From assembly GCA_002469525.1 (NCBI GenBank), contig DKME01000129.1:8217-50335 (forward strand): a stretch of 42,119 nt of DNA, written 5' to 3'. Below are positions 2,248 through 30,215 of the stretch, in pieces; position 1 is the first letter of the stretch; each line of letters begins with the position of its first letter. Both the position numbers and the translations under genes were made by a program. The notes beneath the pieces are model-generated. The model had not been told where the DNA came from. It did no database searches and worked only from the letters and a program-made list of their open reading frames with translations. The DNA comes from Actinobacteria bacterium UBA7422. GTDB taxonomy: Bacteria; Actinomycetota; Actinomycetes; S36-B12.

Positions 2248-3012
2248 GTGACCAAGGTCGTTTCGATTCACTCATTTCGTGGTGGAACAGGTAAAAGCAA
2301 TACCAGTTCGAATATTTCGGCGCAATTAGCTGCTATGGGCAACCGGGTTGCAGTGGTTGACACCGACATCCAAAGCCCCGGAATCCACGTGCTCTTTGGT
2401 TTCGCGGACGATCTGGACAACACCCTCAATGACTATTTGTGGGGCAAAATCCCGATCAAAGACGCTGCACATGAGGTCACCGACCGAATTGCGCCCAATG
2501 TAACCGTCGCAGACGGTGGTGCGCTGTACCTGGTCCCTTCAAGTATGAAGTCCGGTGACATTGCCCGCGTGCTGCGTGAAGGCTACGACGTGGGAACCCT
2601 CAACGACGGTTTCCGTGATCTGGCAAAAGATCTTGATTTGGACTATTTGATTATTGACACTCACCCGGGTCTGAACGAGGAAACATTGTTGTCAATCACG
2701 ATCAGTGACGTTCTCCTTCTTCTGATGCGCCCAGATCGCCAAGACTTCCAAGGCACAGCGGTCACCGTTGATGTTGCGCGCAAACTCGGAGTCCCTGAGC
2801 TTTACTTGATCATCAATAAAGTTCCCTCCAATATTGACAAGGAAGACCTACGCGAGCAAATGAAACAGGTCTACGCAGCGGACGTCGCCGCCGTCCTTCC
2901 CCTCGCGGAAGAAGTAGTGCAAAACGCCTCGGAGGGCCTGTTCTCAATCACAAGCCCAGATCACCCATGGTCTGCCGAGATTCGCGCGGCAGTGGAAGTA
3001 ATTTCACAGTAG
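2248..3012 (+). CDS. MinD/ParA-family (SIMIBI class) P-loop ATPase
   Basis: 254-aa ORF with a GTG start 6 nt after AAGGAG (2236-2241). Deviant Walker A is SFRGGTGKSN. Switch region is VVDTDIQSPGIHV. Walker B is YLIIDTHPGL. Arg (codon 2278-2280) sits where MinD/ParA/NifH-type ATPases have the signature Lys. Confidence 0.75.
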   Translation: MTKVVSIHSFRGGTGKSNTSSNISAQLAAMGNRVAVVDTDIQSPGIHVLFGFADDLDNTLNDYLWGKIPIKDAAHEVTDRIAPNVTVADGGALYLVPSSMKSGDIARVLREGYDVGTLNDGFRDLAKDLDLDYLIIDTHPGLNEETLLSITISDVLLLLMRPDRQDFQGTAVTVDVARKLGVPELYLIINKVPSNIDKEDLREQMKQVYAADVAAVLPLAEEVVQNASEGLFSITSPDHPWSAEIRAAVEVISQ

Positions 3013-3052
3013 AGGAATATTGACATGGCCCAAGCCAAAGGAATCTGCGTTA

Positions 3053-3343
3053 ATGAGTAACAGTGAAGAGTTGCGATTCTACAACCGGATGGCAACGAGT
3101 CCACTTTTCTCAGAGGCCATAAGCGGTGCAACGAGCATTGAGTCGGCCATTGAAATTGCAGCAAATCACGGATTCGATGTCGATGAAAGTGCAATTCGAG
3201 TTGCAGCCGGAATCCAATTGACCGGATCGCGAGCGAATAATGCCAACGCTGACCCGAATCCTGAGCTATCGGAATCTGACCTTGAAGCAGTAAGTGGAGC
3301 AGGGGATTGGTGGAAGACTAACTGTGGCCCAATTAGCATGTAG
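3053..3343 (+). CDS. lanA: Nif11-like-leader lanthipeptide precursor (LanA); predicted core DWWKTNCGPISM or GDWWKTNCGPISM
   Basis: 96 aa counted from ATG 3053, with AAGGA at 3038-3042 (10-nt spacer). The N-terminus SEELRFYNRMATSPLFSEAISGATSIESAIEIAANHGFDVDESAI follows the Nif11 domain pattern. ELSESDLEAVSGAG matches the ELSDEELEGVAGG-type double-glycine leader end. The C-terminal 12-13 aa (3305-3340) hold one Thr, one Cys and one Ser. The gene sits directly upstream of a C39-ABC exporter and near a LanM. Confidence 0.7.
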   Translation: MSNSEELRFYNRMATSPLFSEAISGATSIESAIEIAANHGFDVDESAIRVAAGIQLTGSRANNANADPNPELSESDLEAVSGAGDWWKTNCGPISM

Positions 3344-3354: not shown

Positions 3355-3390
3355 GTATTCCCGCACTAAGTAGAATACCCGCACTATGTA
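3355..3390. repeat. Two tandem 18-nt direct repeats between the precursor gene and the exporter genes
   Basis: gtattcccgcactaagta (3355-3372) is followed directly by gaatacccgcactatgta (3373-3390); 15 of 18 positions are identical by my count. It lies in the 68-nt gap between lanA and the HlyD-like gene. Confidence 0.8.
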
Positions 3391-3411: not shown

Positions 3412-4236
3412 ATGGCTGACCAGAGTGAAGGAAACGGCAGACGTCAATCAGACGTGTTAAACGCGATCTTTGATGCCGTCGAGGAAAAACCGGAACAAGG
3501 GCCAAGAGCCGGATCAAATCTCTTTAGAGTTAAAGCGTTGGAACAAATTGATATTCCAACCCAATTGGACAACCTGCTCCCGATCACTTCCCGCAAATTG
3601 TGGATTTCACTCATCGCTGTCGTGCTGGTTCTAGCAGGTGGACTGGTTTACGCGGGAGGGGTTACTCAGATCTCTTCGGTTTCCGCCGCTGGGAGGGTTG
3701 TGCAGTCGGACGGGATCGCTGTCGCTGCGGCTCCAACTGACTTATTGCTCGCGCAAGTTCTCGTGAACGAAGGACAATTGGTCGCTGAAGGACAAGTTCT
3801 CGGTCAAGGGGTAATTCCCGGTGGTGACCAAGTGTCGATTGTGGCACCCGTCGACGGAACCGTGTGGCAAATCCTTGGAACATTGGGCCGCGTGAGCCCG
3901 GCGGGAGAAGCCGTCATGAGCATCTTGCCCGCTGGAAGTGAAAGCAATGTGCTGATTGCTCTGCCAGAGAGCGATGCAGCCGGGGTTGCTCTTGGTCAAG
4001 TAGTTGAGATTTCCAGTTCGGCGGGAACTCGGACTGGTGAGGTGTCCCACATTGATAGTGCGCCAATTCCCGCGGAAATCGCATCCGAGCGCACGGGATC
4101 GGAGTTTCCCGCGGAGACACCCATGATCATGATTGACGTCACTTTAGACGAACAACTCGATGCTGGATCCTCCGTTAACGCCGAGATTATTGAGTCCGAA
4201 CGCACGCTACTCAATCAGCTGGTGAATGTGGGGTGA
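3412..4236 (+). CDS. HlyD-family membrane-fusion/secretion adaptor (NHLM-type bacteriocin secretion protein), short form
   Basis: 274 aa. N-terminal FRVKALEQIDIPTQLDNLLPITSRKLWISLIAVVLVLAGGLVY (cytoplasmic tail plus one TM helix) is typical of bacteriocin HlyD proteins. It is followed by lipoyl-like half motifs (VNEGQLVAEGQVL ... IVAPVDGTVWQI) and a beta-barrel-like C-terminus. The stop overlaps the next gene's start (GTGA at 4233-4236). Confidence 0.65.
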   Translation: MADQSEGNGRRQSDVLNAIFDAVEEKPEQGPRAGSNLFRVKALEQIDIPTQLDNLLPITSRKLWISLIAVVLVLAGGLVYAGGVTQISSVSAAGRVVQSDGIAVAAAPTDLLLAQVLVNEGQLVAEGQVLGQGVIPGGDQVSIVAPVDGTVWQILGTLGRVSPAGEAVMSILPAGSESNVLIALPESDAAGVALGQVVEISSSAGTRTGEVSHIDSAPIPAEIASERTGSEFPAETPMIMIDVTLDEQLDAGSSVNAEIIESERTLLNQLVNVG

Positions 4237-6377
4237 GCGCTCCACGAAACCACCGGGTGAAAGTACCCACAATGCTCCAAATGGAGTCAACCGAGTGTGG
4301 TGCCGCAAGTTTAGGCATGGTGCTTGCTCACTACGGCCGATTTGAACGACTAGATGCTTTACGCGTTGCCTGTGGCGTCTCACGGGACGGAGCCACAGCC
4401 AAGAACGTTGTATCTGCAGCCCGCAGTTTTGGGCTACAGACTCGTGCGCTGAAGCGCGAACCAGAGGCCCTGAAGACTCTGACATTTCCTTTGGTCGTTC
4501 ACTGGAAGTTCTATCACTACCTGGTTGTCGAAGGCTGGTATCCCGGCGGTTGGTACGTAAATGATCCCGCTAAGGGAAGTGTCAAGATTTCCGCAGACGA
4601 ATTTGATAAGAGTTTCACCGGAATCGCTCTGGAACTGACGCCAGGTGAGGAGTTTGAAAAGTCTGGCGAACGCCCGGGTGTATTGGGCCGCCTGGTAGCA
4701 GCGTCAGGTCACATAGTGCCAGCGGTATTCGCCGCAGTAGTCATTGGACTATTGCTACTCATCCCTACACTTTTGATGCCACAAGTATTGACCTTGTACG
4801 GGAACAATCTCAACGGACTTGTGGGCATAACCGCGGTTTCAACTTTGATCGGACTGGTCCTTGCACTCGGTATTTCTTCAACGTTGCAGGCGCTGCAAGG
4901 TGCTCTCTCAATTCGGCTCTCGACAAAAATTAGCCTAAGGCTCACCGCTTCAATGGTACAGCGGCTCCTCCAACTTCCGGCTTCATTTCACGCGCAAAGG
5001 GGTGCGGCTGTAACCACTCAGAGAGCCTTGCTCATTGACGGAATGAGCGCTGGTGTCAGCGCCTTGACCCTGACCTTGGGAACGGCAGTGTTGACAAGTT
5101 TGGCTGCACTCACTGTTCTATTCCTGATCAACGTTCCCATTGGCGCAACAGCATTAGTGATTGGGCTTCTGACGTTGGTGCTCATTCGTGGAACGTTGAA
5201 TAAGGCAAAAGACGAAGCCGCAAAAGTTGTCGTAGAAACCGTGGAGGCTGGAGCGGTAATGGCTTCTTCCCTTTCCCAAATTGAGTCCATTAAGGCTGCG
5301 GGCTCAGAGGACGGGATGATCGCGCGTGGTGTTGCCGCGACTAACCGGCAATTGGAGGCTGAGCAAAAGGTAGCCATGCGCATGTTGGTCATAAGTTCAG
5401 TACCCACGTTCCTCATTGCACTGGCAAACATTGTGATCATGGGTCTGGCTGTATTTGAGATTTCCCAAGGTCGGCTAGAGCCGGGTGCACTCTTCGCGGT
5501 TATTGCTTTGACCGCAATGTTGGTGGGTCCACTCGCCCAAATCGTCAGCATGCTCGCACAGGTTCAACTCCTTCGCCCAGCGCTTGACCAAGTCGACGAC
5601 GTACTCGACTCCCCACTTGCATTGAGGCCGATTCCCACTGGGCTCGTGCCCGCCGACATTGTGGGCGATGTGCAATTGCGGAATATCAGTTTTGGTTACA
5701 GCTCCCTAGCACCGATGGTGATCAAGGGCCTTGACCTTCATCTACCAGTTGGAGGTCGGGTTGCGTTGGTGGGTCCCTCGGGCTGTGGAAAGTCCACGAT
5801 CTCCAAATTGGTCAGTGATTTATACCAACCGTGGTCAGGGGAAATCCTCATTGATTCCCTTCCACGCGAGGAACATTCTCAGGCGGTTCTCACTGACTCA
5901 ATTGCCCTCGTTGACCAAAACTTAACAATTTTTGCCGGCACAATTCGAGACAACGTCACGTTGTGGGACCCCGAAGTCACGGACGAATCCGTGATTCAAG
6001 CACTCGCCGACGCACAACTCTCACAAGACGTACTTGCTAGGCCGGGGGGACTTGAGGCGGTGCTCTCCGAGGGTGGGGCTGACCTTTCAGGTGGCCAACG
6101 TCAGAGACTTGAGATCGCTAGAGCCCTGGCTCGCAATCCGCGGATTTTGGTGCTCGACGAAGCAACAAGTGCATTAGATCCGCCAACGGAAACCCTCATT
6201 GATCAAGCTATTCGGCGCCGTGGAATCTCCGTCTTGGTAATCGCGCATCGCCTTTCCACAATTCGAGACAGTGACGAAATCGTTGTTCTGGAAGTTGGCG
6301 AAGTTGTTGAGCGAGGAACACATGAAGAACTCATGGCGGCAGAGGGCACGTATTTCGCTTTGGTGAATTCCGGATGA
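4233..6377 (+). CDS. lanT: Bacteriocin/lantibiotic ABC exporter with N-terminal C39 double-glycine leader peptidase domain (LanT / NHLM ABC1 type)
   Basis: 714 aa. C39 motifs are intact: Q16, catalytic Cys22 in STECGAASLGMVLAHYG (codon 4296-4298), His in KFYHYLVVEG and Asp in YVNDPAKG. There is a six-helix TMD. The NBD has GPSGCGKST, LSGGQRQRLEIARAL, ILVLDEATSALD and IAHRLST. Confidence 0.9.
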   Translation: MSAPRNHRVKVPTMLQMESTECGAASLGMVLAHYGRFERLDALRVACGVSRDGATAKNVVSAARSFGLQTRALKREPEALKTLTFPLVVHWKFYHYLVVEGWYPGGWYVNDPAKGSVKISADEFDKSFTGIALELTPGEEFEKSGERPGVLGRLVAASGHIVPAVFAAVVIGLLLLIPTLLMPQVLTLYGNNLNGLVGITAVSTLIGLVLALGISSTLQALQGALSIRLSTKISLRLTASMVQRLLQLPASFHAQRGAAVTTQRALLIDGMSAGVSALTLTLGTAVLTSLAALTVLFLINVPIGATALVIGLLTLVLIRGTLNKAKDEAAKVVVETVEAGAVMASSLSQIESIKAAGSEDGMIARGVAATNRQLEAEQKVAMRMLVISSVPTFLIALANIVIMGLAVFEISQGRLEPGALFAVIALTAMLVGPLAQIVSMLAQVQLLRPALDQVDDVLDSPLALRPIPTGLVPADIVGDVQLRNISFGYSSLAPMVIKGLDLHLPVGGRVALVGPSGCGKSTISKLVSDLYQPWSGEILIDSLPREEHSQAVLTDSIALVDQNLTIFAGTIRDNVTLWDPEVTDESVIQALADAQLSQDVLARPGGLEAVLSEGGADLSGGQRQRLEIARALARNPRILVLDEATSALDPPTETLIDQAIRRRGISVLVIAHRLSTIRDSDEIVVLEVGEVVERGTHEELMAAEGTYFALVNSG

Positions 6378-9214
6378 CCCCGCAAGTTCTCAACGTGTCA
6401 GGGGAGAAAACTCAAGGCGTTGAATCAGGTTTCGTTTACAAGTGTGTCTCTGGAACCATGCTGTTATTCGTTGTTAACCCAGAAGGGCGCAGGCTTCCGG
6501 TTGGTGACTTCTCCGAAGGCGAAGTGGTCATGGGGGCCGACAGGGTCCCGGGTGAATCGCACCTGCTGATCGCCGGCACCCAAGGCACAATCGTGGAGGT
6601 GCACGCCAGCTCGCAGTTCATCGAAAATTCTGGCACCGAAGCAATTTCGCATTGGTTCTATCGGGTTGGTGAGATCGCTCTGGCAGGGCGCTGGGTGCAA
6701 AAGGTTATTGCGCCCAACGGTGAAAAGCTTCGACTCGCTCCAGGTGAAAACGTTGTGACCCGAAGCGACTCGGTCCCGGCCCACAACAAAGAAATCCTGG
6801 GTTGGTTAAAAGTCACGTCGGGGACGGCAACATATTGCGGGTGGGCCTCAGGGCATATCGGGGTCCTGGATGTGGCCGTGCCGATCACCCGTGGTGTGTG
6901 GCTTACCAGCGGGCTTCGCTGCCAGATTCTGGACGCTGCAGCACCCCAGAATCCCCAGGAGTGGGTGGCCGCGAGTGACCTAATGGGAGGGTTGTTGTGT
7001 GCGGCAATAATTGATTCTCAGCGCACTCGCGACGAGAAACGACAAAGTGCCGTGCAAGAAGCAGATTTCGTTATGTCGCAGAGTGTTCAGGCTGGTATCG
7101 ACTCGCTCGCGGGCGCGGTTATTGGAGAGGTCAATTCACAGGAGATCCCACGGGGGCGCGATTACGCTGCATTGACCTGCGGTTTTCGAGTGGCTCAAGC
7201 CACCGGGCTTACGCTCACTGACGGCGCTTGGGATTCGGCAAAGATTGAAGTTGCAACCGGTCGAAACCCGATTTCGATAGTGGCCTCACATGCAGCTGCT
7301 CGCTCGCGAGACGTCACTTTGGAAGCGGGCTGGTGGGAACTTGAAGGGCCACCACTTGTGGCAAAGAGTGAACGGGGCGACTACTTCGCCTTGATTTGGC
7401 AAGGTCGAAAGTGGGAAGCATTTACTGCCGCGGAGCCACATAAGCCGATTGCGGTTGATTCCGAATTCGCTTCGGGGCTATCCCGCTCTGCCACCGAGAT
7501 CGTACCGATCCTTCCCCCTGAACCGAGTGGGCTTTCTGCATTGATTCGCTTAGCGTCCGCGCGATCACGCAGTGATCTGGTAACCCTGGTGGTGTTGACA
7601 GTCGGAATTGCCGCGATGGCGTTTTTTACTCCCTATATTTTAGGGCAGTTAGCCAATTCAATCTCGGAAGTCACCCCTACTTCAATCTTCACGGCCGTTG
7701 GCGCATTAATCCTGATTCTGTTGGCCACAACGGGTTGGGAAATAGTTCGAAGCTTGGCCTTACTTCGAATTAGGATTCGCGGTTCAGCAATTGCAATTGG
7801 TGCAGTGTGGGACCGCATGATGCGTCAGCGTGCCACTTGGCATGACAAATTTACCCTCGGTGAACGTATGACCCAGTCCACTGCTGTCTCAACTTCAGCA
7901 ACGGCCGTGCCTGATGCAACGATTATCGCCTTGATCGACACTGTCACGATAATTGGTGGCTTGGCAGCGATCGCCACGACCAGTTCAGCGCTACTGCTGT
8001 CAATCACAATCTTGTTAGTAATTCAGTTTTCGGTCAACCTTTGGTTCACCAAACTCGGGGCAAAACTCACCTATGAACGCGTTTCGGCAAGTTCAGCGGC
8101 TACCGGTCGCCTGATGGAAACTCTTGGGGCGGTTGACCGAATAAAAGTTTCCGGTGCGCAAGGCCGGGCCTTCAAAAGGTGGGCAAGTGTGCAGGCCCTA
8201 CTGACTTCGGCTGATCTGTCCCTGCGCAAACTGATGGTAATCCAAGGGATTGTATTGGCCGCCTGGCCGATAATTGGACTGATTGTGATTGTGGCAGTGT
8301 CTGGTGCGACGGGAGCAAGTTTCGGGGATTTCGTTACCGCTCAAACTGCCACGGCAATCGCCACCACGACACTGGGCGCCACCTCCATTGCCGCTAGCGC
8401 ACTGCTCAACGGACAAGCTGTTTTACGCAAAGTGAAACCAGTGCTGGAAAGCGAACCCGAAGGGTTCGGGCAGGGAGTGTCACCGGGCAGAATCAGTGGA
8501 GGAGTCAGTTTTAGTGACATAAATTTCCGCTACGATCCGGCCACTAAGCCAGTTCTGAACGGAATCAGCTTTACCGTTAACCCAGGGGAGCATGTCGCAA
8601 TTGTCGGGCCATCGGGTTGTGGGAAAACCACTCTCATGCGTATTTTGCTCGGATTGGAAGAACCAGAGTCCGGCGTTATTTCGGTGGACGGAATGGACAT
8701 GGCCTCACTGGATCGACCATCACTTCGCAGACAAATCGGTAGTGTCCTGCAATCTTCCAAATTATTACCCGGAACAATTTTTGCCAACATTGACATGGGC
8801 AGAGGGCTCAGTCGCGAGCAGGTGTGGGAAGCACTTGAATGGGCCAGCGTGGCAACAGATGTTCGCGCCATGGGGCTTGGCCTAGACACTCCAGTGGTGG
8901 ACGGATCTGGTTCAGTTTCCGGTGGTCAACGTCAGCGGATCCTATTGGCGCGAGCCTTAGCTTCCAACCCTCGCATGCTCGTTCTCGACGAAGCGACCAG
9001 TGCCTTGGACAATGTGACACAGGGTGTGATCGTGGACTTCCTGGACACCCTTCGTCTGACACGAATAGTTGTCGCGCACAGACTGTCTACTATCGCCGGT
9101 GCCGATCGAATCATTGTGTTAGTCGACGGTCACGTAGCGCAGATGGGAACCTATGAGGAACTCACGAGAATCCCGGGTCACTTCAAAGATTTAGCTGAAC
9201 GTCAACTCGCCTGA
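6374..9214 (+). CDS. ABC exporter permease/ATPase with ~390-aa N-terminal extension (NHLM ABC2-like partner subunit)
   Basis: 946 aa; ATGA overlap with the upstream gene (6374-6377). TMD starts near aa 400. The NBD is intact (GPSGCGKTT, VSGGQRQRILLARAL, MLVLDEATSALD, VAHRLST). The N-terminal region has beta-barrel-like segments and a C39-like stretch lacking the catalytic His (GDYFALIWQG). Confidence 0.8.
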   Translation: MTPQVLNVSGEKTQGVESGFVYKCVSGTMLLFVVNPEGRRLPVGDFSEGEVVMGADRVPGESHLLIAGTQGTIVEVHASSQFIENSGTEAISHWFYRVGEIALAGRWVQKVIAPNGEKLRLAPGENVVTRSDSVPAHNKEILGWLKVTSGTATYCGWASGHIGVLDVAVPITRGVWLTSGLRCQILDAAAPQNPQEWVAASDLMGGLLCAAIIDSQRTRDEKRQSAVQEADFVMSQSVQAGIDSLAGAVIGEVNSQEIPRGRDYAALTCGFRVAQATGLTLTDGAWDSAKIEVATGRNPISIVASHAAARSRDVTLEAGWWELEGPPLVAKSERGDYFALIWQGRKWEAFTAAEPHKPIAVDSEFASGLSRSATEIVPILPPEPSGLSALIRLASARSRSDLVTLVVLTVGIAAMAFFTPYILGQLANSISEVTPTSIFTAVGALILILLATTGWEIVRSLALLRIRIRGSAIAIGAVWDRMMRQRATWHDKFTLGERMTQSTAVSTSATAVPDATIIALIDTVTIIGGLAAIATTSSALLLSITILLVIQFSVNLWFTKLGAKLTYERVSASSAATGRLMETLGAVDRIKVSGAQGRAFKRWASVQALLTSADLSLRKLMVIQGIVLAAWPIIGLIVIVAVSGATGASFGDFVTAQTATAIATTTLGATSIAASALLNGQAVLRKVKPVLESEPEGFGQGVSPGRISGGVSFSDINFRYDPATKPVLNGISFTVNPGEHVAIVGPSGCGKTTLMRILLGLEEPESGVISVDGMDMASLDRPSLRRQIGSVLQSSKLLPGTIFANIDMGRGLSREQVWEALEWASVATDVRAMGLGLDTPVVDGSGSVSGGQRQRILLARALASNPRMLVLDEATSALDNVTQGVIVDFLDTLRLTRIVVAHRLSTIAGADRIIVLVDGHVAQMGTYEELTRIPGHFKDLAERQLA

Positions 9215-9250: not shown

Positions 9251-12200
9251 CTAGATGAACAAGTGACGCGCGGCGATGCGATCCTGCTTGGTCCCCGAAA
9301 TCTGATTGAGCGCGAAACCGACGCCGGCAAGTCCCTTAAACAGGCTTGGTGCTTGTAGCTCGGGGCTACCAAAGGCGGTAATGCGAAAGCCGCCAAGGCT
9401 GGCTGCGCGAGATTGAATTGCTTCGAGCAACTCTTTGCTCGCAAGATTCCATTGATCTTGGCCGGTTGAGTCACCCAAGTAACTTAGAATTAAGGCCCGT
9501 CCTAGGTTGCCGCAACAAATTGAGTCCAGTCCTACAACGCCGGTGCTTGCTGTGGTGTGGGCTGCGAGAGCTAAATCATGCCTCCACATGTGTCCGTCGT
9601 TGTGATCTGGAACAAGTTCCAGCGCGCGCATGCGTGTCAGTGCAATACCGGGTGCCCCTGCGCACCAGCCATACATAAATTTGTCTTCCGAAGCTTTTGT
9701 ATTGTGCTCTCGCAGGTCTCGCCAGTTTCCCGCGGAGGCTACGAAGTCAGCTGACTCGGTAGACATGGCTCGAGCGCCGGCATCTATGAAATCAGTGTTC
9801 TCTAAAGCAACTCCTATTTCGATTAAAGCTATTCCGATACCGCTTGAACCGTGGGCCAAGCCGTTAAGGGCACGTGATGAGAATTGCCCGATCCAATTTC
9901 CGTCTTCGGTGAGGTTCTTAATCAGGTGATGTGCGATCAATTCCACGGCGTTGCGGGTTACAGGTTCACCGAATGCGGTGAACCTACGGGCTAAGGCCCC
10001 TGCGCTGCCGGCAACACCGCTGATGACGTCAAATGATCGATCCCGTGCCACGAGTTGCTCGGTGACTAATTCACTGAAGGCATCCCAGAATATTGCAGCT
10101 TTGCCAGGTTCAAGGCTTGAATTGGTCTCGAGGTATTCATAGAGTCGAGCAACCCCACCGATACCATTAATGCCAAGCCCATTGTCTCGCACCGCTCGAA
10201 ATGCCGCCCCATCCTGTGAATGAGTAAACAGGCTCTCGACCTCGACCATCGCCTCAGTGACTTGGACGTCACTACGTTGGCTTGAGAAAAATGCCATGAG
10301 TCCGGCACGACCGCCGTACAAGTTCAACGAAATGGATTGCAGTGCAAAGTGATCTGCATTTCCTTGAGCCTCCAACACAAGCCAGGTCGGATTGCCAGCG
10401 GTGTCCTTGAGTGTCAGGTCCGTGAGTTGATTGGCAATCTGTGTAGGCGTAAGGGCAGTAAATTCAACTATTTCCGCAGACGAACTTTGCTGAGCCTGAT
10501 GAATTGAATCACGCGAAGCAAATGCGCCACGAATCAGCCGAGCTTGCCACTCTAGTTCTGAAGGGGAGAACCGCTCGAGCCGCAAGGTTGCGGCATGTAT
10601 TCCCTCACTTGAGATCACTCCTTCAATATCTCCGAAATCAGACCTAATTGAAGTCGAACCAAGGGGAAAGTCGAAATACGGTATGTCGTAGTTCTCCATT
10701 GCCCGTAGTTCTTCATGGAAAATTTTCCAATGCGCTGTCTGCTCTGTAGCGATTAACCAAGACCTCGAAAGTCTGTCAATTTCAATTCCTCGAAGCAGCG
10801 GCTGTGCCATGCACTCTGGTCGAAGTGCTCGGCTGGACAGAATGGCGTACGTACTCGTATTGCGCATGACTATTCGACGGTTAATTCCGTGAAAACGTTG
10901 AAAACGTCGCGCAATTTCAACGCGAATGTCTGGATTAAGAACCAAGTTATACACCTGTGTAAAGCCGCTGATTATCTCTTCCAAATGGTTAGACAATGGG
11001 TTAGCAACACCCAATGAGACAGGTAGTGAAGTTGGTGCACGCGCTGGTATTTCATGAGCATCAAGGTGCATCGCGTCGCTGTTGATCTTGACCCAGCCAC
11101 GGGTTTTAACGGTGGCCTTGATTGCTGAATCAATGCCAAGTGCACTCCAATCTGCCAGTGGGGCACCTACTGCAATCGAGCGCCAATTAGGAAGCATTCC
11201 GATTCGAAGTACAGAGTCTTGAAGGCCGTCAATCACTGAGGGCTCGGTCTCAATAAAATTACTAAGTTCACTGTCGAAAATAGTCTCAGCGTCAATGAGA
11301 AATAGGTCGGTTCCGTTGGCGATCAAATTTTCGGTGTGGCAATCTGAACCGTTAACCATATAAATGATTCCAAGTAGCCTGCCGGAATTTTCATAGAACT
11401 CGGGAAGTCCAGATGACTCACACGGAATGTGCTCAATGAATTCCGCGTAACCATGGGTTTCCCCTACCGCCGCAATGGTTATTTGACGGAGCGATTCTCC
11501 CGGCAGTTGCGACTTGATCCAGCCAAGGAAGTCGTTGAATTCCGCCTCAATACGCATGTCTTTGGGTTTATAAACTACTGACCAGCCGGGGTGCGAATCA
11601 GTGGAGTGCGATTCGCAGAAAAACAGAACCGCAACCTCTTGGCCACCACGGTGCGGATCACTGAGTGCCAAGGTGAGCCCGCAGAGTCCGGCATTTAGTG
11701 GAATCCCGAATGTATTCAACAGGGTGTCGCGATCCTGGTGGACTCGTTCCAGGAGTGAGCGCGTATTTTTCTCCCATTGAAGTGTGACAATTCCGAGCAA
11801 CCGACCAATCCCCGGGTACTCGGCAAGTAGTGACTCCAAAGCGTCTGACAAGGTGTCGTTGCAAAACTGCTGGTAGCTGCGTGCACCGGCTGCGGCTAGT
11901 AAAGTCCTCGAGGTCATGTGCGAAAGTCGTGAAATCAGGACTTTCACCAGTTCCTGTTCCATGAGAGCAGTGGGGATCAGTGTGGTCAGCGGATTGAGGC
12001 TGTCGAAAAATTCCCGAGTGGTCTGCTCAACCAGCGGCGCCAACACATGATAAAACGGAATCGCGCCTTCACCAACGTTGTGATCGAAATCAATCGATCG
12101 CTCTGAAAGTTGAGAGCGAATTTTCGTGAGCTTGTGCACCCATGGAGATGATCCAGCGGTATCGAGGTTCTGGGCCAACATCGCCACAGCATGACCAAAG

Positions 12201-12382
12201 TTAATTCCATCCCAGGACAGTCGACGCTCAAAATTACCTAACCCGGCCGGATCAATCAGGGCGCGCCAACTATCGAGCACTGGCGTCAAGTCTGCCGAAA
12301 GGTCCAAGGGATCCAGAGGTGCCAGTTTTGGAGCTTCCGCCAGTCGTTCATCCCATGAGGGAAAAAAGGGGCTCGAGATCAC
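9251..12382 (-). CDS. lanM: Class II lanthipeptide synthetase LanM (dehydratase/kinase domain plus LanC-like cyclase), CCG-type
   Basis: 1043 aa, GTG start. The dehydratase catalytic region is GSDCHTENLIANGTDLFLIDAETIF (DCHTEN = 11327-11344, checked against the nucleotides). The C-terminal LanC-like motifs are GLAHGSSGIGIAL, GWCAGAPGIAL and SICCGNLG (CCG = 9509-9517, checked). It is convergent with exporter module 1 and divergent from module 2. Confidence 0.9.
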   Translation of the reverse strand: MISSPFFPSWDERLAEAPKLAPLDPLDLSADLTPVLDSWRALIDPAGLGNFERRLSWDGINFGHAVAMLAQNLDTAGSSPWVHKLTKIRSQLSERSIDFDHNVGEGAIPFYHVLAPLVEQTTREFFDSLNPLTTLIPTALMEQELVKVLISRLSHMTSRTLLAAAGARSYQQFCNDTLSDALESLLAEYPGIGRLLGIVTLQWEKNTRSLLERVHQDRDTLLNTFGIPLNAGLCGLTLALSDPHRGGQEVAVLFFCESHSTDSHPGWSVVYKPKDMRIEAEFNDFLGWIKSQLPGESLRQITIAAVGETHGYAEFIEHIPCESSGLPEFYENSGRLLGIIYMVNGSDCHTENLIANGTDLFLIDAETIFDSELSNFIETEPSVIDGLQDSVLRIGMLPNWRSIAVGAPLADWSALGIDSAIKATVKTRGWVKINSDAMHLDAHEIPARAPTSLPVSLGVANPLSNHLEEIISGFTQVYNLVLNPDIRVEIARRFQRFHGINRRIVMRNTSTYAILSSRALRPECMAQPLLRGIEIDRLSRSWLIATEQTAHWKIFHEELRAMENYDIPYFDFPLGSTSIRSDFGDIEGVISSEGIHAATLRLERFSPSELEWQARLIRGAFASRDSIHQAQQSSSAEIVEFTALTPTQIANQLTDLTLKDTAGNPTWLVLEAQGNADHFALQSISLNLYGGRAGLMAFFSSQRSDVQVTEAMVEVESLFTHSQDGAAFRAVRDNGLGINGIGGVARLYEYLETNSSLEPGKAAIFWDAFSELVTEQLVARDRSFDVISGVAGSAGALARRFTAFGEPVTRNAVELIAHHLIKNLTEDGNWIGQFSSRALNGLAHGSSGIGIALIEIGVALENTDFIDAGARAMSTESADFVASAGNWRDLREHNTKASEDKFMYGWCAGAPGIALTRMRALELVPDHNDGHMWRHDLALAAHTTASTGVVGLDSICCGNLGRALILSYLGDSTGQDQWNLASKELLEAIQSRAASLGGFRITAFGSPELQAPSLFKGLAGVGFALNQISGTKQDRIAARHLFI

Positions 12383-12507: not shown

Positions 12508-13341
12508 TTGCGCAAGCAAAAATCGTGTGTGAGCGATTCAGGCCCCAGCACAAAGTTCGAGGTCGAGTCCCCGATAGCCCGCCTTGACCAGGTGGTAATT
12601 TTTGGCAAACCACGCCTCTGGGTAGGACTCTTAGGGGTTATTTCACTTATTCTCGCCGGGCTCGTGTGGGGTTTATTGTCCTCTCCGCCAGTAACGGTGG
12701 GTGCTCGAGGCGTCCTCTCCACTCAAGGCGGCCCACTTGAGATTGGAACTTCCCAGAGTGGAACCGTGACCGGGCTTAACGTGGTTCTGGGGGAGAGCGT
12801 TCAACGCTTTAACGTAATTGCCGTCGTTCAAGACGACCAAGGAAATTTTTCACCCATAACCACTTCGGTATCGGGAACCGTGATTGAGATCTCAACACAG
12901 GTGGGCGACTTTGTTAGAGAGGGCGAGAGCATCGCGATAATTCAGGATTCGCGCGAGCAATTGCAAGCTATCGCGTTAATCCCTGTCTCAACTGTGGGAA
13001 CAATAGAAGTGGGTCAGCCGGTGAATATCACCGCTGTTTCTGTTCCTGTGGGACAGTTCGGATACCTCCAGGGCACCGTGGCAACTATTTCAAGTATCCC
13101 GATGAGCCGTGCCCGAGTCAATCAATTGGTGGGCAGCGTCGCGGGATATCAAGACATTGACACATTGTCCGAGCCAATCGTTGAGGTGCGTGTGGATCTA
13201 ACGCAGGATCCAGAAACCGTCTCCGGATTTGCCTGGACAATTGGAGTTGGGCCCCCATTTGGCCTGCTGGCCGGTACTCCTTGGACCGGCGACATTATTA
13301 CCGGATTTCAAAGCCCGCTCACATCACTTTTCGGTTCCTAA
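12508..13341 (+). CDS. HlyD-family secretion adaptor, short form (paralogue of 3412-4236)
   Basis: 277 aa from TTG 12508 (alternative GTG at 12529). It has the same layout as the first HlyD-like protein: a short tail, one TM helix (LWVGLLGVISLILAGLVWGLL), lipoyl-like halves (VSGTVIEISTQVGDFVREGESIAIIQ) and a beta-barrel region. The stop overlaps the next start (TAATG at 13339-13343). Confidence 0.6.
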   Translation: MRKQKSCVSDSGPSTKFEVESPIARLDQVVIFGKPRLWVGLLGVISLILAGLVWGLLSSPPVTVGARGVLSTQGGPLEIGTSQSGTVTGLNVVLGESVQRFNVIAVVQDDQGNFSPITTSVSGTVIEISTQVGDFVREGESIAIIQDSREQLQAIALIPVSTVGTIEVGQPVNITAVSVPVGQFGYLQGTVATISSIPMSRARVNQLVGSVAGYQDIDTLSEPIVEVRVDLTQDPETVSGFAWTIGVGPPFGLLAGTPWTGDIITGFQSPLTSLFGS

Positions 13342-15668
13342 TGCGTGTCTCCTTAGCCCAGGCACCCACAGATGGTGGATTGTCATGTCTGCGCATGGCT
13401 TTTGCGGAACAACGCGTGCACGTGGGAACCGAAGACTTGCGAAACGTCAGTGGGGTCGGGCGAGACGCACCCGATCAGGACACATTGATTCGTACGGCAG
13501 AATTTTTTGGATTTTCAACCAAGGTAATCGACATTTCGCAACTAATCGAGTCCGGCGTCGCAGAGGGGTCCGAGTCAGTAAGTATGCCGCTTGTGGCGCA
13601 ATGGGGAACTGCTGATCGTCGCTATTTTGTTTTAGTCACGCGAGTGGGTCCCAAGTCGATCGAAATCATTGATCCGTTTGTAGGCCGCCGGTCCTTGGAT
13701 TTTTCCGAGGCGAGGGAATTCCTCCGAGGCGAGGGTTTTCGTGTAAGAGCGGAAGCGAATGAACCGCAACGAAATTCCGAAAGTCCGGAGAGCATCTCGC
13801 GGTACTTCGTTTCTAGTCGCAATGGAACATTGTTCTTAGTTCTTGCAGGACTGGGCCTGATCGTCCCGGGAGTGATTGCTCCAGGTTTTGTTCGAGTTTT
13901 CGTCGACGACTACTTGGCTCGGGGTGACCGGGATAGTCAGTTTGCGGTACTTGGAGGGCTCACCGCCATGCTGATTCTCACCGTCACCTTGAGTGCATTT
14001 CAACTGATTGCATTAAGAAGGCTTAACACCATTGCGGTTTCGCACATGGGTTCCCGCCTGATGTGGCATTTGTTGCGAATGCCCGCGTGGTTTCTCACAG
14101 CGAGGGATGCAACCAGTCTTGGGTACCGGGTCCAAATCACCCAGCAAATCGCAGGTGTCTTATCCGGTGAGCTCGCCGTTGCCCTGATGGCTGTCTTCAC
14201 GAGTGTGTTCTTTCTCCTCGTAATGTTCATTCTTTCTCCGATCCTGGCCCTTGTCTCCTTCTTTGGTTTCATGACCGTGGTCCTATTGATTCTTCGTGTT
14301 GCTTCAGAGCGCACCCAAGTGCGCCAACGTCAGGCCAGGGAGAAGGAAGTTGGCGCGAATCTGATTGGAACTAGCATTAGAGTTTTAGACACTTTAAAAG
14401 CAACAGGCAATGAAAATATTGCGTTTGACCGCTCCTATTCTTCATTGGGAAGGTTGCTTTCTTTGGGCAACACGCACCTCTGGGCATGGATGGGAATGAT
14501 TCCGATCGCGGTCACTCTCTTCACCACAGTCTTCGTCTTGACCGTAGGTGCGCTGCTAGTGATTATTGGATCAATAACGCAAGGAACCCTTGCGGCTTTT
14601 TTCCTCTTGCTGGCTGGGTTTTTGGCGCCGTTAGTAATCCTTGTTCCAAGCATTGACTCGTTCCTGAGCCTTCGAGGTGCGCTGGAGCAGCTTGACGATA
14701 TTTTGCTGCAAAAAGTAGATCCCGCATTGAGTGATCCATATGTTGATGGTGAAAGTGAAGCGGATCTAGAAGTAGACGTGTTTGACGCTTTAGCGGCGAA
14801 ACCCGGCGTGAGTGAAGGTGATAGCGCCGAAGTTAAAGAGGGCGAAGATGAAGAGGACGCTGAGGTTGACTATTTGTCTCTCCTTGTTGCCAAAGGAGGT
14901 CGTAAGCGCGGATTGAAATCAGGTGGCGGAACGGGCTTAGTGGTTGATCCGTGGGCTGCATCTTTGGAATTAACGAACATCACGTTCGGATACAGTCGAA
15001 TTCTTCCACCGTTGCTGAGCGGCATTGATTTGAAAATCAGTCCAGGACGGGTAGTTGCTTTGGTTGGCGCCAGCGGTTCAGGTAAGTCAACGATCGGTCG
15101 GTTAGTAGCGAGCATGTATCAACCTTGGGAGGGCTCAATCGCTTTGGATGGGAAAGCATTGAGCACGATCTCCCAAGAAACCAAAGCGCACGAAATCAAT
15201 TTTGTTAATCAAGATGTCGTTATTTTCCAAGCTTCTATTCGGGAGAACATCTCGATGTTTAACCCGGATATTCCAGACCGTGACATAGTTAAAGCTGCAA
15301 AGAAGGCACTCCTGCATGACGACATAGTCGCGCGCCCGGGAGGTTATGAATCAATTTTGCAAGAAGATGGCAAGGACCTTTCCGGGGGACAACGACAGAG
15401 ATTAGGAATTGCGCGAGCACTGGTTCGCAACCCACGTTTACTCGTATTAGACGAGGCTACGAGTTCCTTAGACTCACGCACCGAGATGGAAATTGTGAAG
15501 AACCTTCGGGCTCAAGGTTGCACGTCGTTGGTCATTGCGCATCGGCTCTCCACCGTCAGGGACGCTGACGAAATAATTGTGATGGACCAAGGAAAAATTG
15601 TGGAGCGCGGAACGCACAACAGCCTTGCAGCCAATGACGGTCCGTATCGAAAGTTAATGGACTCATGA
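13341..15668 (+). CDS. ABC exporter with degenerate C39-like N-terminal domain (paralogue of the LanT-type subunit)
   Basis: 775 aa from ATG 13341. The ORF-track TTG at 13281 would add 20 atypical residues and overlap the upstream gene. The N-terminus [24 protein letters not shown] aligns to QMESTECGAASLGMVLAHYG with Gly at the catalytic Cys position (13374-13379), and [11 protein letters not shown] has Tyr where His is expected. The NBD is intact ([43 protein letters not shown]). [13 protein letters not shown] and [10 protein letters not shown] parallel LYQPWSGEILIDS and [10 protein letters not shown] of 4233-6377. Confidence 0.8.
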   Translation: [775 protein letters not shown]

Positions 15669-17875
15669 ACCAATCGCCACTAACCCAGCAGAATCAAGAC
15701 CACGAAAGCTCTGCTCGTGCGCGCAAAAAAAATCAGAGCGATCAAGCCGCAGCAACAATGGGTCGTCTGTTAAATCCAGCATTGCCCCTCCCTTCGGCCA
15801 TGCTGGGTGGCGGACGAGTTGGCGAGATTGTTGCGATTTTGGCTCGAGAGATGAATTTTACGCAAAACCCTGTGCAGGTTGATTCGTCTTTGAGCGATCT
15901 TGATCAAGTGGATCGAGCATTGGCGGCGTCAGGTGTTCGAACCCGCAGGGTCACCCTGTCTCAAGATTGGATAGAACTGACAACAATGAACATGGTGGTC
16001 CACACTTCAGGTGGGTTGACTTCAGGTGGATTGGCCGTCGTCGTTCCAGGTTCGCTGCGTAGGCCTCGAATAATTGAGGTTAATGCTGACCCTCGAGATG
16101 TCGATTCAGAGCTGGCCCGGGAAATTTCATTCACTGCCTTGGAAGTGATCCAACCCTTAAAACCCGGAACTCCTCGAAACTGGGATTTGATCAAATTGTC
16201 CGTTTCTGGGATGCGCGGCGATTTGACCTACGCCATTCTGGCTTCCGTAGCCGTCGGGCTCATAAGTCTGGCAATTCCCATTGCCACAAGCCTAATTTTT
16301 TCGAACGTTGTCCCCGAAGGAGACACCGCGCGACTTGGAATAGTTTTCGTCGTCCTCCTCCTCCTCGCCAGCGCCTCCGCGTTTTTCGTGTACCTGCGGA
16401 CTTACCAACTCATTCGCATCTATGACGGAATCGACATGAACATGTTTGGTTCGATCCTAGATCGCATATTGAGACTACCCATGAGTGGGCTGCGAGATTG
16501 GTCGAGTGCGCGCATTGCGTCCAAGGTGAGTTTAAGTGTGCAATTGCAATCAGCAATCGCGCAGGCAATCGGTGTGGGTCTATTCGCTGCACTCCTTGTT
16601 GTACTTAACGGAGTACTCATGCTCGTCTTGATCCCAAGCCTCGGTGCTATCGCGATTTTGCTCGGTGGCGCATTGCTGGGGGCCACCTGGTACCTAATTT
16701 CTCGTGAGAAACAACAAGTGCATGCGGAGCGAATCGCCAGCGACAACTTGGAAGAAGTCACACTGGATTTAGTGCGAGGCTGGGTGCCTATTCGGCTCTC
16801 TGACGGGGAAACCTCGGGCTTTGGTCGTTGGGTGTCAAGTTTTGCCCAGCATAGAAGTGCATATGACGCGCGTTGGCGCTACGAGATGCGCACTGACATT
16901 CTGCGCATCGCCTTTATCGCGATCATGTCCCTCGCATTTGTGTGGACGGCGTACCTGCTGCCGCTTGGAACGATTTCTTCCGCGAGCTTCCTCGCCTTTC
17001 TGTCCGCGTTCACGCAATTTTCATTTGGGATCGCAGGCGTCACGGTTACGATCAGGGCATTCACTCACGCCCTCGTTGATACCGAAAGGGTAAAAGAAAT
17101 TCTGTCGATTCCAGTTGAAGATTCAACGGCCAGGGAATCTCCTGGGATGCTTACTGGCGCCATTGAATTGCGGGGGGTTTCATTTCGTTATGCCGACGAT
17201 TTTCCAAAAGTGTTGAACGATGTTAATTTCACCGTCGGGCCCGGAGATTTTATTGCGATCGTAGGTAGCTCTGGTTCTGGCAAATCCACGTTGCTTCGGC
17301 TGATGCTGGGCTTTGAAGCGGCAACACAAGGTTTAGTGGCCTATGACGACACTGATCTTTCCATGATGGATCTAAACGCTGTGCGACGCCAATTCGGGGT
17401 GGTTTTGCAGTCAAGTTTACTTCTTCCGGGAACGATCCGAGAAAATATCTCTGTCACAACGGGAAGTGTCAGCGACGCTCAACTTTGGCAAGTACTCGAA
17501 CAGGTTGATCTGTACTCATTCGTTGAGGGGCTCCCACTCGGGTTAGACACCGTGATTGACGAAGGCGCGCACGTGCTTTCTGGTGGACAGCGTCAGCGCA
17601 TGCTCCTTGCACGAGCATTGGCTCACGCACCTGCTGTTCTTTTCCTTGACGAGGCAACGAGTGCTCTAGACAACATCAGCCAGAAGGCAGTCTCCGACCG
17701 AATTGAAAATCTGGGAATAACACGAATCGTGATCGCTCACAGGCTCTCTACAATTGAGGCTGCTGACAAGATCATCGTTCTGGATAAAGGTTCGGTTGTT
17801 CAGACCGGTACCTATTCCGAATTAGTGAATCAGCCGGGATTTTTTTCCCAGCTCGTGGCTAGACAGGAGCTGTAA
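15665..17875 (+). CDS. ABC exporter permease/ATPase with ~180-aa Cys-free N-terminal extension (paralogue of 6374-9214)
   Basis: 736 aa; ATGA overlap at 15665-15668. The NBD is intact ([43 protein letters not shown]). [15 protein letters not shown] parallels LQSSKLLPGTIFANI of 6374-9214. The N-terminal region ([24 protein letters not shown]) resembles a C39-like fold, but I saw no Cys in its first ~180 aa. Confidence 0.8.
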   Translation: [736 protein letters not shown]

Positions 17876-18771
17876 TGCGCTCAACCAAGTGGATCTCCAA
17901 GATAGCCATTGGTCTTTTTTTGGGCACCCTCACACTAAGCGGCTGCAGCAGCACAGATCCGTCCACGGTCAGCGAGGGCTCGAATAGTGGGTCGATTGAT
18001 AGCACGGCAATAGATGAGACACGTCCCTCGCGCCCGCTTACGGTTGCCTATTGGAATGCTGCTCCAGGAGCGTATCTCAATAGTGAAGGCGAATTGGTGG
18101 GCTGGGAAATCGAGTTAATCCAACGGGTATCCCGTGAGCTCGAGACCGAAGTTGAGTTCATCCAGATGGATTTCGCAGACATCTTGCCAGCGGTGATTTC
18201 AGGGGAAGTAGATCTTGGGGTCGGTAGTATTTTTTCCACTCCTGAGCGACAAGTGTATGTCGATTTTGTCAATTATGGACAAGGCGGGGTCTCGTGGGCC
18301 ACCCTGACCGATCGCGTGGAAAGTCCGTTTGACCCATGCGGGTGGAGGGTCGCCGGTGAAATAGACACGACGAATGTAAATGTTTCACTTCCGAATGCCT
18401 CAATTGATTGCAGGGCTGCTGGGAAGGAACCCATCACGATTGTGCCGGTCCAAGATTTGCCTGTTGCGGTGAATTTGTTGCAAAGAGAAGAGATAGACGC
18501 CTTTATCGGAGACAGTCCGACCGTTACGTACATTATTCAAGAGTCAGGTGGGCGAATTGCCCAAACAGGGGTCACGCAAGAGGTTCAGTCCTATGGAATC
18601 GCTGTCAATAAAGACGATCGAGAGTTATCAGAGTCTTTCGTTGACGCACTGACAAGTTGGTCAGCGAGCGGGGACTACAACCGCCTGTTAGGCAAGTGGG
18701 CTGTATCCGATAGTGAGGTTAGTTTTTTCACGATTAATCAATTGAATCCAAATGATGCAGAATCACAATAA
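17875..18771 (+). CDS. Family-3 solute-binding protein (amino-acid-type SBP), lipoprotein
   Basis: 298 aa; the ATG overlaps the upstream stop (TAATG at 17873-17877). Lipobox is LTLSGC with Cys24. SBP_bac_3-like core: LTVAYWNAAPGAYLNSEGELVGWEIELIQRVSRELETEVEFIQMDFADILPAVISGEVDLGVGSIFSTPERQVYVDFVNY. Confidence 0.8.
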   Translation: MRSTKWISKIAIGLFLGTLTLSGCSSTDPSTVSEGSNSGSIDSTAIDETRPSRPLTVAYWNAAPGAYLNSEGELVGWEIELIQRVSRELETEVEFIQMDFADILPAVISGEVDLGVGSIFSTPERQVYVDFVNYGQGGVSWATLTDRVESPFDPCGWRVAGEIDTTNVNVSLPNASIDCRAAGKEPITIVPVQDLPVAVNLLQREEIDAFIGDSPTVTYIIQESGGRIAQTGVTQEVQSYGIAVNKDDRELSESFVDALTSWSASGDYNRLLGKWAVSDSEVSFFTINQLNPNDAESQ

Positions 18772-20176: not shown

Positions 20177-20183
20177 GGTTCAT

Positions 20184-20939
20184 GTGAAAAGCACCAAGGC
20201 AACTGTCAAGATTATTGCAGCATTTGTGGGTCTTGCGTTTGTCGCCACAATTTCAGTTGGTCCTGTGTCGGTCCAAGCAGACACTTCACGGGCGGGCGCT
20301 CCTTTTGTGCAGCAAATTGGCACCTATGACTATCTCGCAGGGCCGAACTATCAAGGCTTACTCCCTATTAAGGAAATCTCAGAATCTGCCGATATTGGTT
20401 TAGGAACATTTAATAACCTCGATGGCGAAATGGTCGTACTTGATGGAACCGTCTACCGGGTGGGAACCGATGGGGTACCAAAGAAAGTTTCGACCAAGCG
20501 GCTTACCCCCTTTATGCAGGTCGTGGACTTTGATCCCAAGGCATCTATGCGAGTGGCCCCAAACACAGCATGCAGTGCCTTGCCGGAGATTGTTGACACG
20601 CTCGTTAAGTCAACCCAAGGAATTGTGTCGGTCAAGCTCAGCGGGGTCTTCTACGACCTCGAACTGCGAAGTGTTCCGGCCCAGCTAGTTCCATTCCCTT
20701 CCCTCATGGACGCGGTCGGTAGCCAAGTGAAATTCCCGCTGGGAAGAATTAACGCCACGCTCGTTGGTTTCCGGCAAGGGCCCGATGCGAAAGGGCTAGG
20801 TGCACCAGGGCTGCACCTGCACGGTCTTTCCAAGTCGAAAGCTTCTGGCGGCCACGTGCTTTCCTGTGTCACCGGTCCTCGAGTCCTCCTGGAAGTCCAA
20901 CAAACTAGCGGTGCCTCGGTCCACATGCCCCACGATTAA
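20184..20939 (+). CDS. Alpha-acetolactate decarboxylase family protein with predicted N-terminal signal peptide
   Basis: 251 aa from GTG 20184, with GAGG at 20175-20178; the start is 8 nt after the upstream stop. A signal-like N-terminus (KSTKATVKIIAAFVGLAFVATISVGPVSVQA/D) precedes ALDC motifs IGLGTFNNLDGEMVVLDGTVYRV and the His cluster LHLHG...GGHVL. The ORF-track start at 20085 lies inside the upstream gene. Confidence 0.7.
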   Translation: MKSTKATVKIIAAFVGLAFVATISVGPVSVQADTSRAGAPFVQQIGTYDYLAGPNYQGLLPIKEISESADIGLGTFNNLDGEMVVLDGTVYRVGTDGVPKKVSTKRLTPFMQVVDFDPKASMRVAPNTACSALPEIVDTLVKSTQGIVSVKLSGVFYDLELRSVPAQLVPFPSLMDAVGSQVKFPLGRINATLVGFRQGPDAKGLGAPGLHLHGLSKSKASGGHVLSCVTGPRVLLEVQQTSGASVHMPHD

Positions 20940-29184: not shown

Positions 29185-29300
29185 GTTCCCTCATTTGACT
29201 GATGAACGTTTGAGTGATTAATTTTTTGATGTGAGTGAAGGCCAAGTCACTTGAAAAAAGAGTCGCTTTCGTGTGTATATGCGCAGACGCTAATACAGTT

Positions 29301-29360
29301 TCTGTTTTTTTGTAACGTTTTTGGCATTTTTTTTATTTTTTATTTTTTTTCTGTTTTCCT
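29301..29360. promoter_or_regulatory. Extreme T-rich tract in a divergent promoter region
   Basis: 43 of the 60 nt from 29301 to 29360 are T on the + strand (hand count), including runs of 7-8 T. It sits in the 262-nt gap between the rhodanese-MBL gene (minus) and the DsrE-like gene (plus). Confidence 0.5.
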
Positions 29361-29386
29361 TGTATGAAGTCGCGCGGGGGTCTAAT

Positions 29387-29411
29387 CTCACATCAGCAGC
29401 CACCGTGTGAG
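29387..29411. promoter_or_regulatory. Inverted repeat, candidate ArsR-type operator
   Basis: CTCACA (29387-29392) and TGTGAG (29406-29411) are separated by 13 nt, about 35 nt upstream of the DsrE-like start. Confidence 0.25.
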
Positions 29412-29446
29412 GACCGCTGTGAATCTGTCTACGGAATGGGGAAAGA

Positions 29447-29932: not shown

Positions 29933-29982
29933 TTAATCAGATCATCGAAAAATAATATTGAGTAACTAATTAAGGAGTCATA

Positions 29983-30210: not shown

Positions 30211-30215
30211 CTTAC

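Follow-up and report, generated by a model that had tools for sequence, protein, structure and literature searches.

The short open reading frame at positions 3053–3343 (+) of the window, by which we mean the whole 42,119-nucleotide stretch analyzed here, raises the question of whether it is a real gene and, if so, what kind of peptide the cell would make from it. Its translation is 96 amino acids long, starts with MSNSEEL and ends with PELSESDLEAVSGAGDWWKTNCGPISM, followed by a stop codon at 3341–3343. The first-pass annotation had described it as encoding one Cys, a Thr two residues before it and a Ser four residues after it, all of which agree with the translation (Cys91, encoded by TGT at 3323–3325; Thr89, codon 3317–3319; Ser95, codon 3335–3337). 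We assign the start to the ATG at 3053 rather than to the upstream alternative TTG at 3020 because the homologues open with MSNSEEL, the leader profile begins at residue 1, and a conserved Shine-Dalgarno-like AAGGA (3038–3042, +) lies 10 nt 5' of the ATG and is kept in loci L001 and L007 in the DNA alignment. Comparison with homologues gave dN/dS values of 0.14–0.36, so the precursor is under purifying selection. Furthermore, a protein identical to the predicted product is present in 228 blocks of indexed public assemblies, with P0032 found on 139 contigs. Taken together with the profile matches described below, this shows that 3053–3343 is a real gene. We consider it probable that it is a structural gene (LanA, of Nif11/N11P type) whose product, carrying a Nif11-type leader, gives a minimal class II lanthipeptide, for which the sequence suggests a pathway of a single Cys91–Ser95 ring and C39-dependent export.

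The assignment of residues 1–83 (3053–3301, +) as a Nif11-like leader, already proposed in the first-pass annotation, was borne out by profile comparison, as the precursor scores above the cut-offs of both Pfam PF07862 (27.5 bits, cut-off 23.8) and NCBIfam TIGR03798 (36.7 bits, cut-off 32.3). TIGR03798 aligns residues 1–82 to profile positions 1–67 of 68, and a divergent homologue from locus L011 reaches 28.7 bits in the Nif11-like leader profile test. The leader ends in a double-glycine-type motif, G82-A83 (3296–3301, +). The peptidase LahT needs hydrophobic residues at positions −4, −7 and −12 relative to its cut site (PMC10885120). Cleavage after A83 would place V80, L77 and L72 at these positions, whereas cleavage after G84 would place Ser, Glu and Ser there, so that only the former meets the LahT rule. 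Because of these hydrophobic residues, the register of the HMM, in which the penultimate position 67 of 68 aligns to G82, and the presence of GG at the same columns in sister alleles, we favor a predicted cleavage after G82-A83 that would release the 13-residue core GDWWKTNCGPISM (3302–3340, +). An earlier proposal had been a core at 3305–3340 or one Gly longer; the longer version is the one favored here over the 12-residue alternative that starts at 3305. P0001, found on 13 contigs, carries Glu and not Gly at −2 of the cut motif (SEAG), which is a poor fit to a G-A cut and might point to A-G, and in the variant P0051 the reading frame continues past CGP. Both P0001 and P0051 could be pseudogenes, alleles defective in processing or errors of assembly.

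In order to describe the core we compared it across the precursor family. This family is small, as only a handful of relatives turned up when 1.8 billion representatives and 5.8 billion clusters were searched by profile. Contigs representing one genome per species were scanned first with the precursor alignment and then with LanM; neither scan yielded a relative, and no cultured or representative genome could be linked to the locus. The source MAGs are labeled Nanopelagicales/Actinomycetes by NCBI, with the NCBI names of the MAG proteins being the basis of this taxonomy. Seven core variants occur among cluster members. The core of the window, DWWKTNCGPISM, is shared with P0032, P0034, P0035, P0040 and P0043; DWWRTNCGPISM is found in P0036 and P0041, DWWNTNCGPISM in P0042, DWWGINCGPISM in P0033, P0037 and P0039, and DWWGFNCGPISM in P0002. 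The two remaining variants are (GG)IDCGPISM, in P0003, P0038, P0044 and P0045, and (GG)IMEDCGPISI in the P0012 cluster, which is 49% identical overall. The family can thus be written as the patterns DWW[K/R/N]TNCGPISM, DWWG[I/F]NCGPISM, IDCGPISM and IMEDCGPISI.

Across these seven variants, in family members of 49–100% identity, C-G-P-I-S (3323–3337, +) alone is invariant, with its codons varying synonymously among loci (TGT/TGC, GGC/GGA, CCA/CCC, ATT/ATC and AGC/AGT). By the same alignment Thr89 and the Trp pair are features of particular lineages. The position of Thr89 is taken by Ile in P0033, P0037 and P0039 and by Phe in P0002, the alleles IDCGPISM and IMEDCGPISI have no counterpart of it, and two clades lack the Trp pair. 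The core has the Cys and hydroxy residues expected of a class II lanthipeptide, but Thr89 is allele-specific and Cys91 and Ser95 are the sole Cys/hydroxy-residue pair common to every allele. Hence the only ring that the whole family could form is Cys91 to Ser95 (i to i+4) with Cys at the N-terminal side, and we propose it as the lanthionine ring because C-G-P-I-S alone is invariant and Thr89 is replaced or deleted in sister alleles. The lone Cys supports the previous statement that at most one thioether ring can form. The first-pass annotation had left two options for this ring, Thr89-x-Cys91 and Cys91–Ser95, of which the family conserves only the latter. The next-closest leader relatives (P0005, P0006 and P0007) are Nif11-like but have short Cys-free cores that are rich in Gly, Ser and Asp and end in Trp (...GGGW, ...MGGW and ...GDW); these presumably belong to a different RiPP chemistry.

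An enzyme that could install such a ring, the LanM named in the first-pass annotation, is encoded at 9251–12382 (−). The product matches TIGR03897 at 581.8 bits (cut-off 304) as well as PF13575 and PF05147, in keeping with a dehydratase and a LanC-like cyclase domain. It contains the motifs SDCHTENLIA, LIDAET, WCAGAPG and ICCGNLG, that is, intact kinase/lyase motifs and a CCG (ProcM-like) zinc site with its zinc ligands in WCAG and CCG, as is characteristic of a bifunctional LanM. Its solved relatives in the PDB are LicM2 and CylM. The gene is syntenic among loci and co-diverges with the precursor. The nearest LanMs outside the family are 32–34% identical, each paired with a Nif11 precursor that has an ordinary multi-Cys core. 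Nif11 leaders are known to accompany CCG LanMs (PMC10027976). Besides LanM, no other tailoring enzyme was found among the scanned ORFs of the window, which are those of at least 150 aa other than 39720–40613 and 41517–42083. Neither a six-frame profile search nor a regular expression found another Nif11 or GG-leader ORF in the window.

Directly downstream of the precursor lies an exporter set composed of an HlyD-type adaptor (3412–4236, +; PF13437, TIGR01843/TIGR03794), a C39 peptidase-ABC exporter of the PCAT, NHLM_ABC1 type (4233–6377, +; alternative start 4272) and a second ABC subunit of the NHLM_ABC2 type (6374–9214, +; TIGR03797 522.5 bits, under the 709.4 cut-off). The adaptor gene is syntenic in all loci, as is the arrangement of the triad as a whole, for which the best NCBIfam matches (TIGR03796, TIGR03797 and TIGR03794/TIGR01843) are all under their equivalog cut-offs. 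The product of 4233–6377 scores 113.9 bits on PF03412 and 732.8 bits on TIGR03796, the latter under the cut-off of 853.3. Its N-terminal domain matches LahT150 (6mpz) at 8e-44, carries the motifs QMESTECG and YHY and has kept the catalytic residues. The C39 exporter named in the first-pass annotation is therefore present with an intact Gln/Cys/His set, and its sequence predicts an active peptidase. The N-terminal extension of the 6374–9214 product, about 270 aa, matched no family.

A second set follows LanM and consists of an HlyD-type adaptor (12508–13341, +; TIGR03794 125.5 bits, under the 156.2 cut-off), an ABC exporter with a degenerate C39-like domain (13341–15668, +) and a second ABC subunit of the NHLM_ABC2 type (15665–17875, +; TIGR03797 548.4 bits, under the 709.4 cut-off). 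Alignment and translation of the C39-like domain (13341–13820), which scores only 35.9 bits on PF03412, show that the catalytic Cys is replaced by Gly and the His by Tyr. With these substitutions the domain cannot serve as the leader peptidase. In this it is similar to the C39-like domains of HlyB-type exporters, which are inactive. The window offers no evident substrate for this second HlyD/ABC/ABC set. It had been suggested that a product this small is unusual for a locus with so much export machinery. This view is not supported, as HlyD plus C39-ABC plus a second ABC subunit is the standard NHLP/Nif11 triad according to the names of the NCBIfam models, and experiments on MppE/MppM have demonstrated a single-ring core of 7 residues that follows a Nif11 leader (PMC11791876).

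On the basis of these assignments we propose the following maturation pathway, in which dehydration, cyclization and cut site are all deduced from sequence. The convergently encoded CCG-type LanM would bind the 83-residue leader, phosphorylate Ser95 and then eliminate the phosphate to give dehydroalanine; in the window allele it would probably also convert Thr89 to dehydrobutyrine. The cyclase domain would add the thiol of Cys91 to Dha95, yielding one lanthionine over C-G-P-I-S with Cys at the N-terminal side. The LahT-like C39 domain of the 4233–6377 exporter would cut after G82-A83, and the C39-ABC protein, the HlyD adaptor and the second ABC subunit would secrete a 13-residue peptide in which the ring is preceded by the variable tail GDWWKTN and followed by a C-terminal Met. 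The monoisotopic mass calculated for GDWWKTNCGPISM is 1493.643 unmodified, 1475.633 with one dehydration and 1457.622 with two; for the 12-mer the corresponding values are 1436.622, 1418.611 and 1400.601. There is direct precedent for such chemistry. The MppM substrate has a 77-aa Nif11 leader followed by the 7-aa core ACWRWSG, in which the enzyme forms a Cys79–Ser83 lanthionine (PMC11791876), and the CCG LanM SyncM makes rings with Cys at the N-terminal side, rings of either polarity and single-ring products (PMC8524650).

The Cys91–Ser95 ring has to be weighed against other fates of the same residues. Rings in which Dhb precedes Cys (N-to-C) have the commoner polarity among lanthipeptides, and both Thr89 and Cys91 are present in the window allele, which speaks for a tight methyllanthionine between Thr89(Dhb) and Cys91 (T-N-C) as the functional ring, with Ser95 left as free Dha or Ser. 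In this allele such a ring could compete with the Cys91–Ser95 ring. As the functional product it is nevertheless very unlikely in our estimate, given that Thr89 is Ile, Phe or absent in sister alleles while Ser95 is invariant. Still more improbable is a different cyclization of the conserved Cys, whether through some other cross-link or through a thiolactone with the C-terminus as in AIPs. Staphylococcal AIPs combine a variable tail, a Cys and a short hydrophobic C-terminus ending in Met or Ile, and the core bears a superficial likeness to them. However, the Cys is five residues from the C-terminus and not four, the invariant Ser would be left unexplained, and the scan of ORFs of at least 150 aa (39720–40613 and 41517–42083 left out) revealed no gene of the AgrB-like, radical SAM or halogenase kind and no other tailoring gene.

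A third outcome would be that LanM leaves the peptide unmodified and serves precursors elsewhere, with the peptide being exported in linear form or as a disulfide-linked dimer after C39 cleavage. In its favor, CCG LanMs such as ProcM and SyncM each act on many precursors dispersed in the genome (PMC10027976), unmodified peptides can have double-glycine leaders too (PMC10885120), and the visible genome comprises only 42 kb. Against this, every locus seen combines one precursor with one LanM, these two genes diverge fastest and in parallel (55% and 54% identity), the nearest outside LanMs (32–34% identity) are each paired with a Nif11 precursor too, and the invariant residues include exactly the one Cys and the one Ser that the ring requires. 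We therefore regard an unmodified product as unlikely, if less so than either alternative cyclization. Since CCG-type LanMs often act on scattered precursors and 42 kb of the genome were seen, this LanM could have other or additional substrates elsewhere in the genome. A single lanthionine between Cys91 and Ser95 remains our preferred reading.

The closest experimentally studied counterpart of this peptide is MppE/MppM from Moorena producens (PMC11791876), which likewise combines a long Nif11-type leader with a very short, Trp-containing, one-Cys core. Its lanthionine joins Cys to the Ser at +4 across C-W-R-W-S, as we predict for C-G-P-I-S, and the Mpp leader can be removed by LahT150, the closest solved relative of the C39 domain described above. 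The mpp cluster differs in that it contains a Trp brominase, arginases, prenyl/terpene genes and transporters without a C39 domain, whereas here LanM is the sole tailoring enzyme found and there are two full exporter sets. A counterpart of the flavin-dependent Trp halogenase of Mpp-type clusters is missing here, as Pfam matched no halogenase family in the ORFs of at least 150 aa (leaving out 39720–40613 and 41517–42083). The host of Mpp is a cyanobacterium, while the host here is labeled as an actinobacterial MAG. The prochlorosins and SyncA peptides, made by ProcM and SyncM, share with this family the Nif11 leader, a GG/GA cut site and the CCG zinc site. In contrast to those systems, in which one LanM acts on tens of hypervariable precursors with no conserved ring motif, the loci seen here, as far as the genome is visible, have the CCG motif together with exactly one precursor each and a ring motif that is strictly conserved.

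Nostolanthin-type clusters of Nostocales (bioRxiv 10.64898/2026.08.14.744816) are similar in having a Nif11 precursor, a LanM, three transporter genes including a C39 PCAT and a conserved, adjacent two-component system. Nostolanthin differs in its 19–24-aa core with three Cys and two rings and in that it oligomerizes; its reported role is not that of an antibiotic (bioRxiv 10.64898/2026.08.14.744816). Mersacidin resembles the predicted product at its processing site, as MrsT cleaves after G-A with Gly-Asp at P1'-P2' (GA|GD; cited in PMC10885120), but binds lipid II, has four rings and depends on a further proteolytic step, of which we see no sign here. The likeness to staphylococcal agr AIPs is functional only and consists of a short exported peptide, a constant small sulfur-containing ring, a strain-variable tail and an adjacent multi-pass histidine kinase. 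The AIP ring is a thiolactone, in contrast to the LanM thioether predicted here, and there is no homology to AgrB or AgrD; no AgrB family was matched among the scanned ORFs of the window, and the precursor is of the Nif11 type.

Collectively, the parts and the predicted chemistry, namely a Nif11 leader with a CCG-LanM synthetase, a peptidase and an export triad, are those of a known system. A short Cys-x3-Ser single-ring core was likewise already known from MppE, as were Nif11-LanM clusters with three transporters and a two-component system from nostolanthin. What is new is the family itself, from uncultured aquatic actinobacteria, and its fixed ring with a variable tail, together with a duplicated exporter that has a dead C39 domain, conserved ParA-like and cNMP-domain genes, and the actinobacterial label of the MAG. 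Single-ring lanthipeptides of 8–13 residues mark the lower size limit of the class and are attractive as minimal macrocycle scaffolds. The precursor family offers a natural series in which one fixed five-residue thioether ring, as predicted, carries interchangeable tails and is served by a dedicated LanM clade 32–34% identical to its nearest relatives. Public assemblies contain the identical peptide in more than 200 indexed blocks, so that the product could be ecologically common.

We then compared the locus among its relatives. In the most divergent one (L011), the gene order of regulator, kinase, cNMP protein, ParA, precursor, HlyD, C39-ABC, ABC2 and convergent LanM is kept, and the synteny of precursor, exporter and LanM is intact. 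Its precursor is 49–55% identical and its LanM, which retains the CCG motif, 53–54% identical. Identity between the window and L011 falls from 95% for ParA to 85% for C39-ABC, 78% for the cNMP protein, 76% for ABC2, 69% for HlyD, 55% for the precursor and 54% for LanM; the kinase, which lies outside the window, is 62% identical between L001 and L011. The precursor and LanM are the fastest-diverging genes of the locus and diverge in parallel. Parallel fast divergence of precursor and cyclase is expected for a molecule of cell-cell interaction and fits a signal and a bacteriocin alike. In L011, a 2.2-kb insert between the kinase and cNMP genes contains a small ORF (5664–5789), MNQEETKEAVPENTTPVDETEISDTELENISGG|TIRIVFS, with a double-glycine leader and a Cys-free 7-residue core, and its product may be a second, unmodified exported peptide.

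At a finer scale, contigs with the KT, RT and GI variants are near-identical, with flanking genes 99.7–100% identical and dS of ∼0–0.02. When KT contigs are paired with GI contigs, no gene is more divergent than the precursor (92.7% identity), and a tract of ∼0.6 kb with 3–6% nucleotide divergence covers the 3' half of the precursor and the 5' end of the HlyD gene. When the whole 20-kb loci of the IDCGPISM strain L001 and of L014 are compared, the flanks are 0–2% divergent and the RiPP cluster 6–24%, with maxima in the precursor and in the cyclase half of LanM. This divergence looks like allelic replacement or a long-maintained polymorphism in a near-clonal background. Between the same two loci an upstream periplasmic-binding-protein gene is also ∼10–12% divergent.

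The released peptide could act as a signal that varies among strains or as a competition factor of narrow spectrum. Loci with the same peptide place two genes immediately upstream of the window, one for a NarL/LuxR-type response regulator and one for a divergent 694-aa histidine kinase with about nine predicted transmembrane segments. This adjacent NarL-type two-component system counts for a signal, as does the fact that the precursor is the polymorphism hotspot of the locus. One reading, which we offer tentatively and regard as more doubtful than not, is that abundant, uncultured planktonic Actinomycetota use the lanthionine-cyclized peptide as a pheromone for quorum sensing or kin recognition. 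The invariant C-G-P-I-S ring would serve as the receptor-binding scaffold and the hypervariable tail (DWWKTN, DWWRTN, DWWNTN, DWWGIN, DWWGFN, ID or IMED) would set the pherotype, the adjacent kinase and NarL-type regulator would sense the peptide, and diversifying selection and recombination would keep the locus a divergence hotspot in otherwise near-clonal genomes. If true, the tail variants as pherotypes would be evidence for peptide signaling in free-living planktonic actinobacteria. Co-variation of kinase and peptide was not seen among near-identical strains, where kinase substitutions do not track the peptide variants. It is unsupported because the kinase changes D501A, Q505R and G513S are private to one contig (L014), and the other KT-peptide contigs carry the kinase allele of the GI and RT strains.

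Several further features surround the precursor. Directly 5' of it, and always syntenic, is a gene for a ParA/MinD-like P-loop ATPase (2248–3012, +), which is 95–98% identical across loci whose LanM is 54–83% identical. Before this lies the gene, also always syntenic, for a membrane protein of 695 aa (25–2112, +) that is ABC-TMD-like at its N-terminus, ends in a cNMP-binding domain and contains a remnant ABC signature and a possible wHTH. Comparisons for paralogy between this protein and the ABC2 subunit, and for domains in the ABC2 N-terminal extensions, gave nothing significant. No terminator was found in the spacer between precursor and HlyD genes, as the two terminator-like matches of the scan lie elsewhere and are not above shuffles. 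The region 3' of the precursor showed no sign of RNA structure (fold z-score +0.88), and Rfam had no match in the window. Between the precursor stop and the HlyD start there is a tandem direct repeat, ATTCCCGCACTAAGTA / ATACCCGCACTATGTA, with a spacing of 18 (3357–3390). It is kept in L007 and deleted in L001, and could be a regulator-binding site.

The second exporter set is directly followed by a family-3 solute-binding protein (17875–18771, +) and a 474-aa dCache-HAMP protein (18752–20176, +) in which no output domain was recognizable. The latter ORF overlaps the longest reading of an alpha-acetolactate decarboxylase ORF (20085–20939). We rejected the idea that the two alpha-acetolactate decarboxylase genes flanking the cluster are island-bounding repeats, as they share only 27% protein identity. 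Further along, the window contains a sulfur/molybdopterin block (a rhodanese-metallo-beta-lactamase fusion, a DsrE-like protein, a fused 4Fe-4S/NrfD protein and a 970-aa molybdopterin oxidoreductase) and, after it, a histidine-utilization set (HutH, an amidohydrolase, urocanase and an arginase-family protein). These genes span 28018–34686 and 35350–41508 and are apparently unrelated to the precursor.
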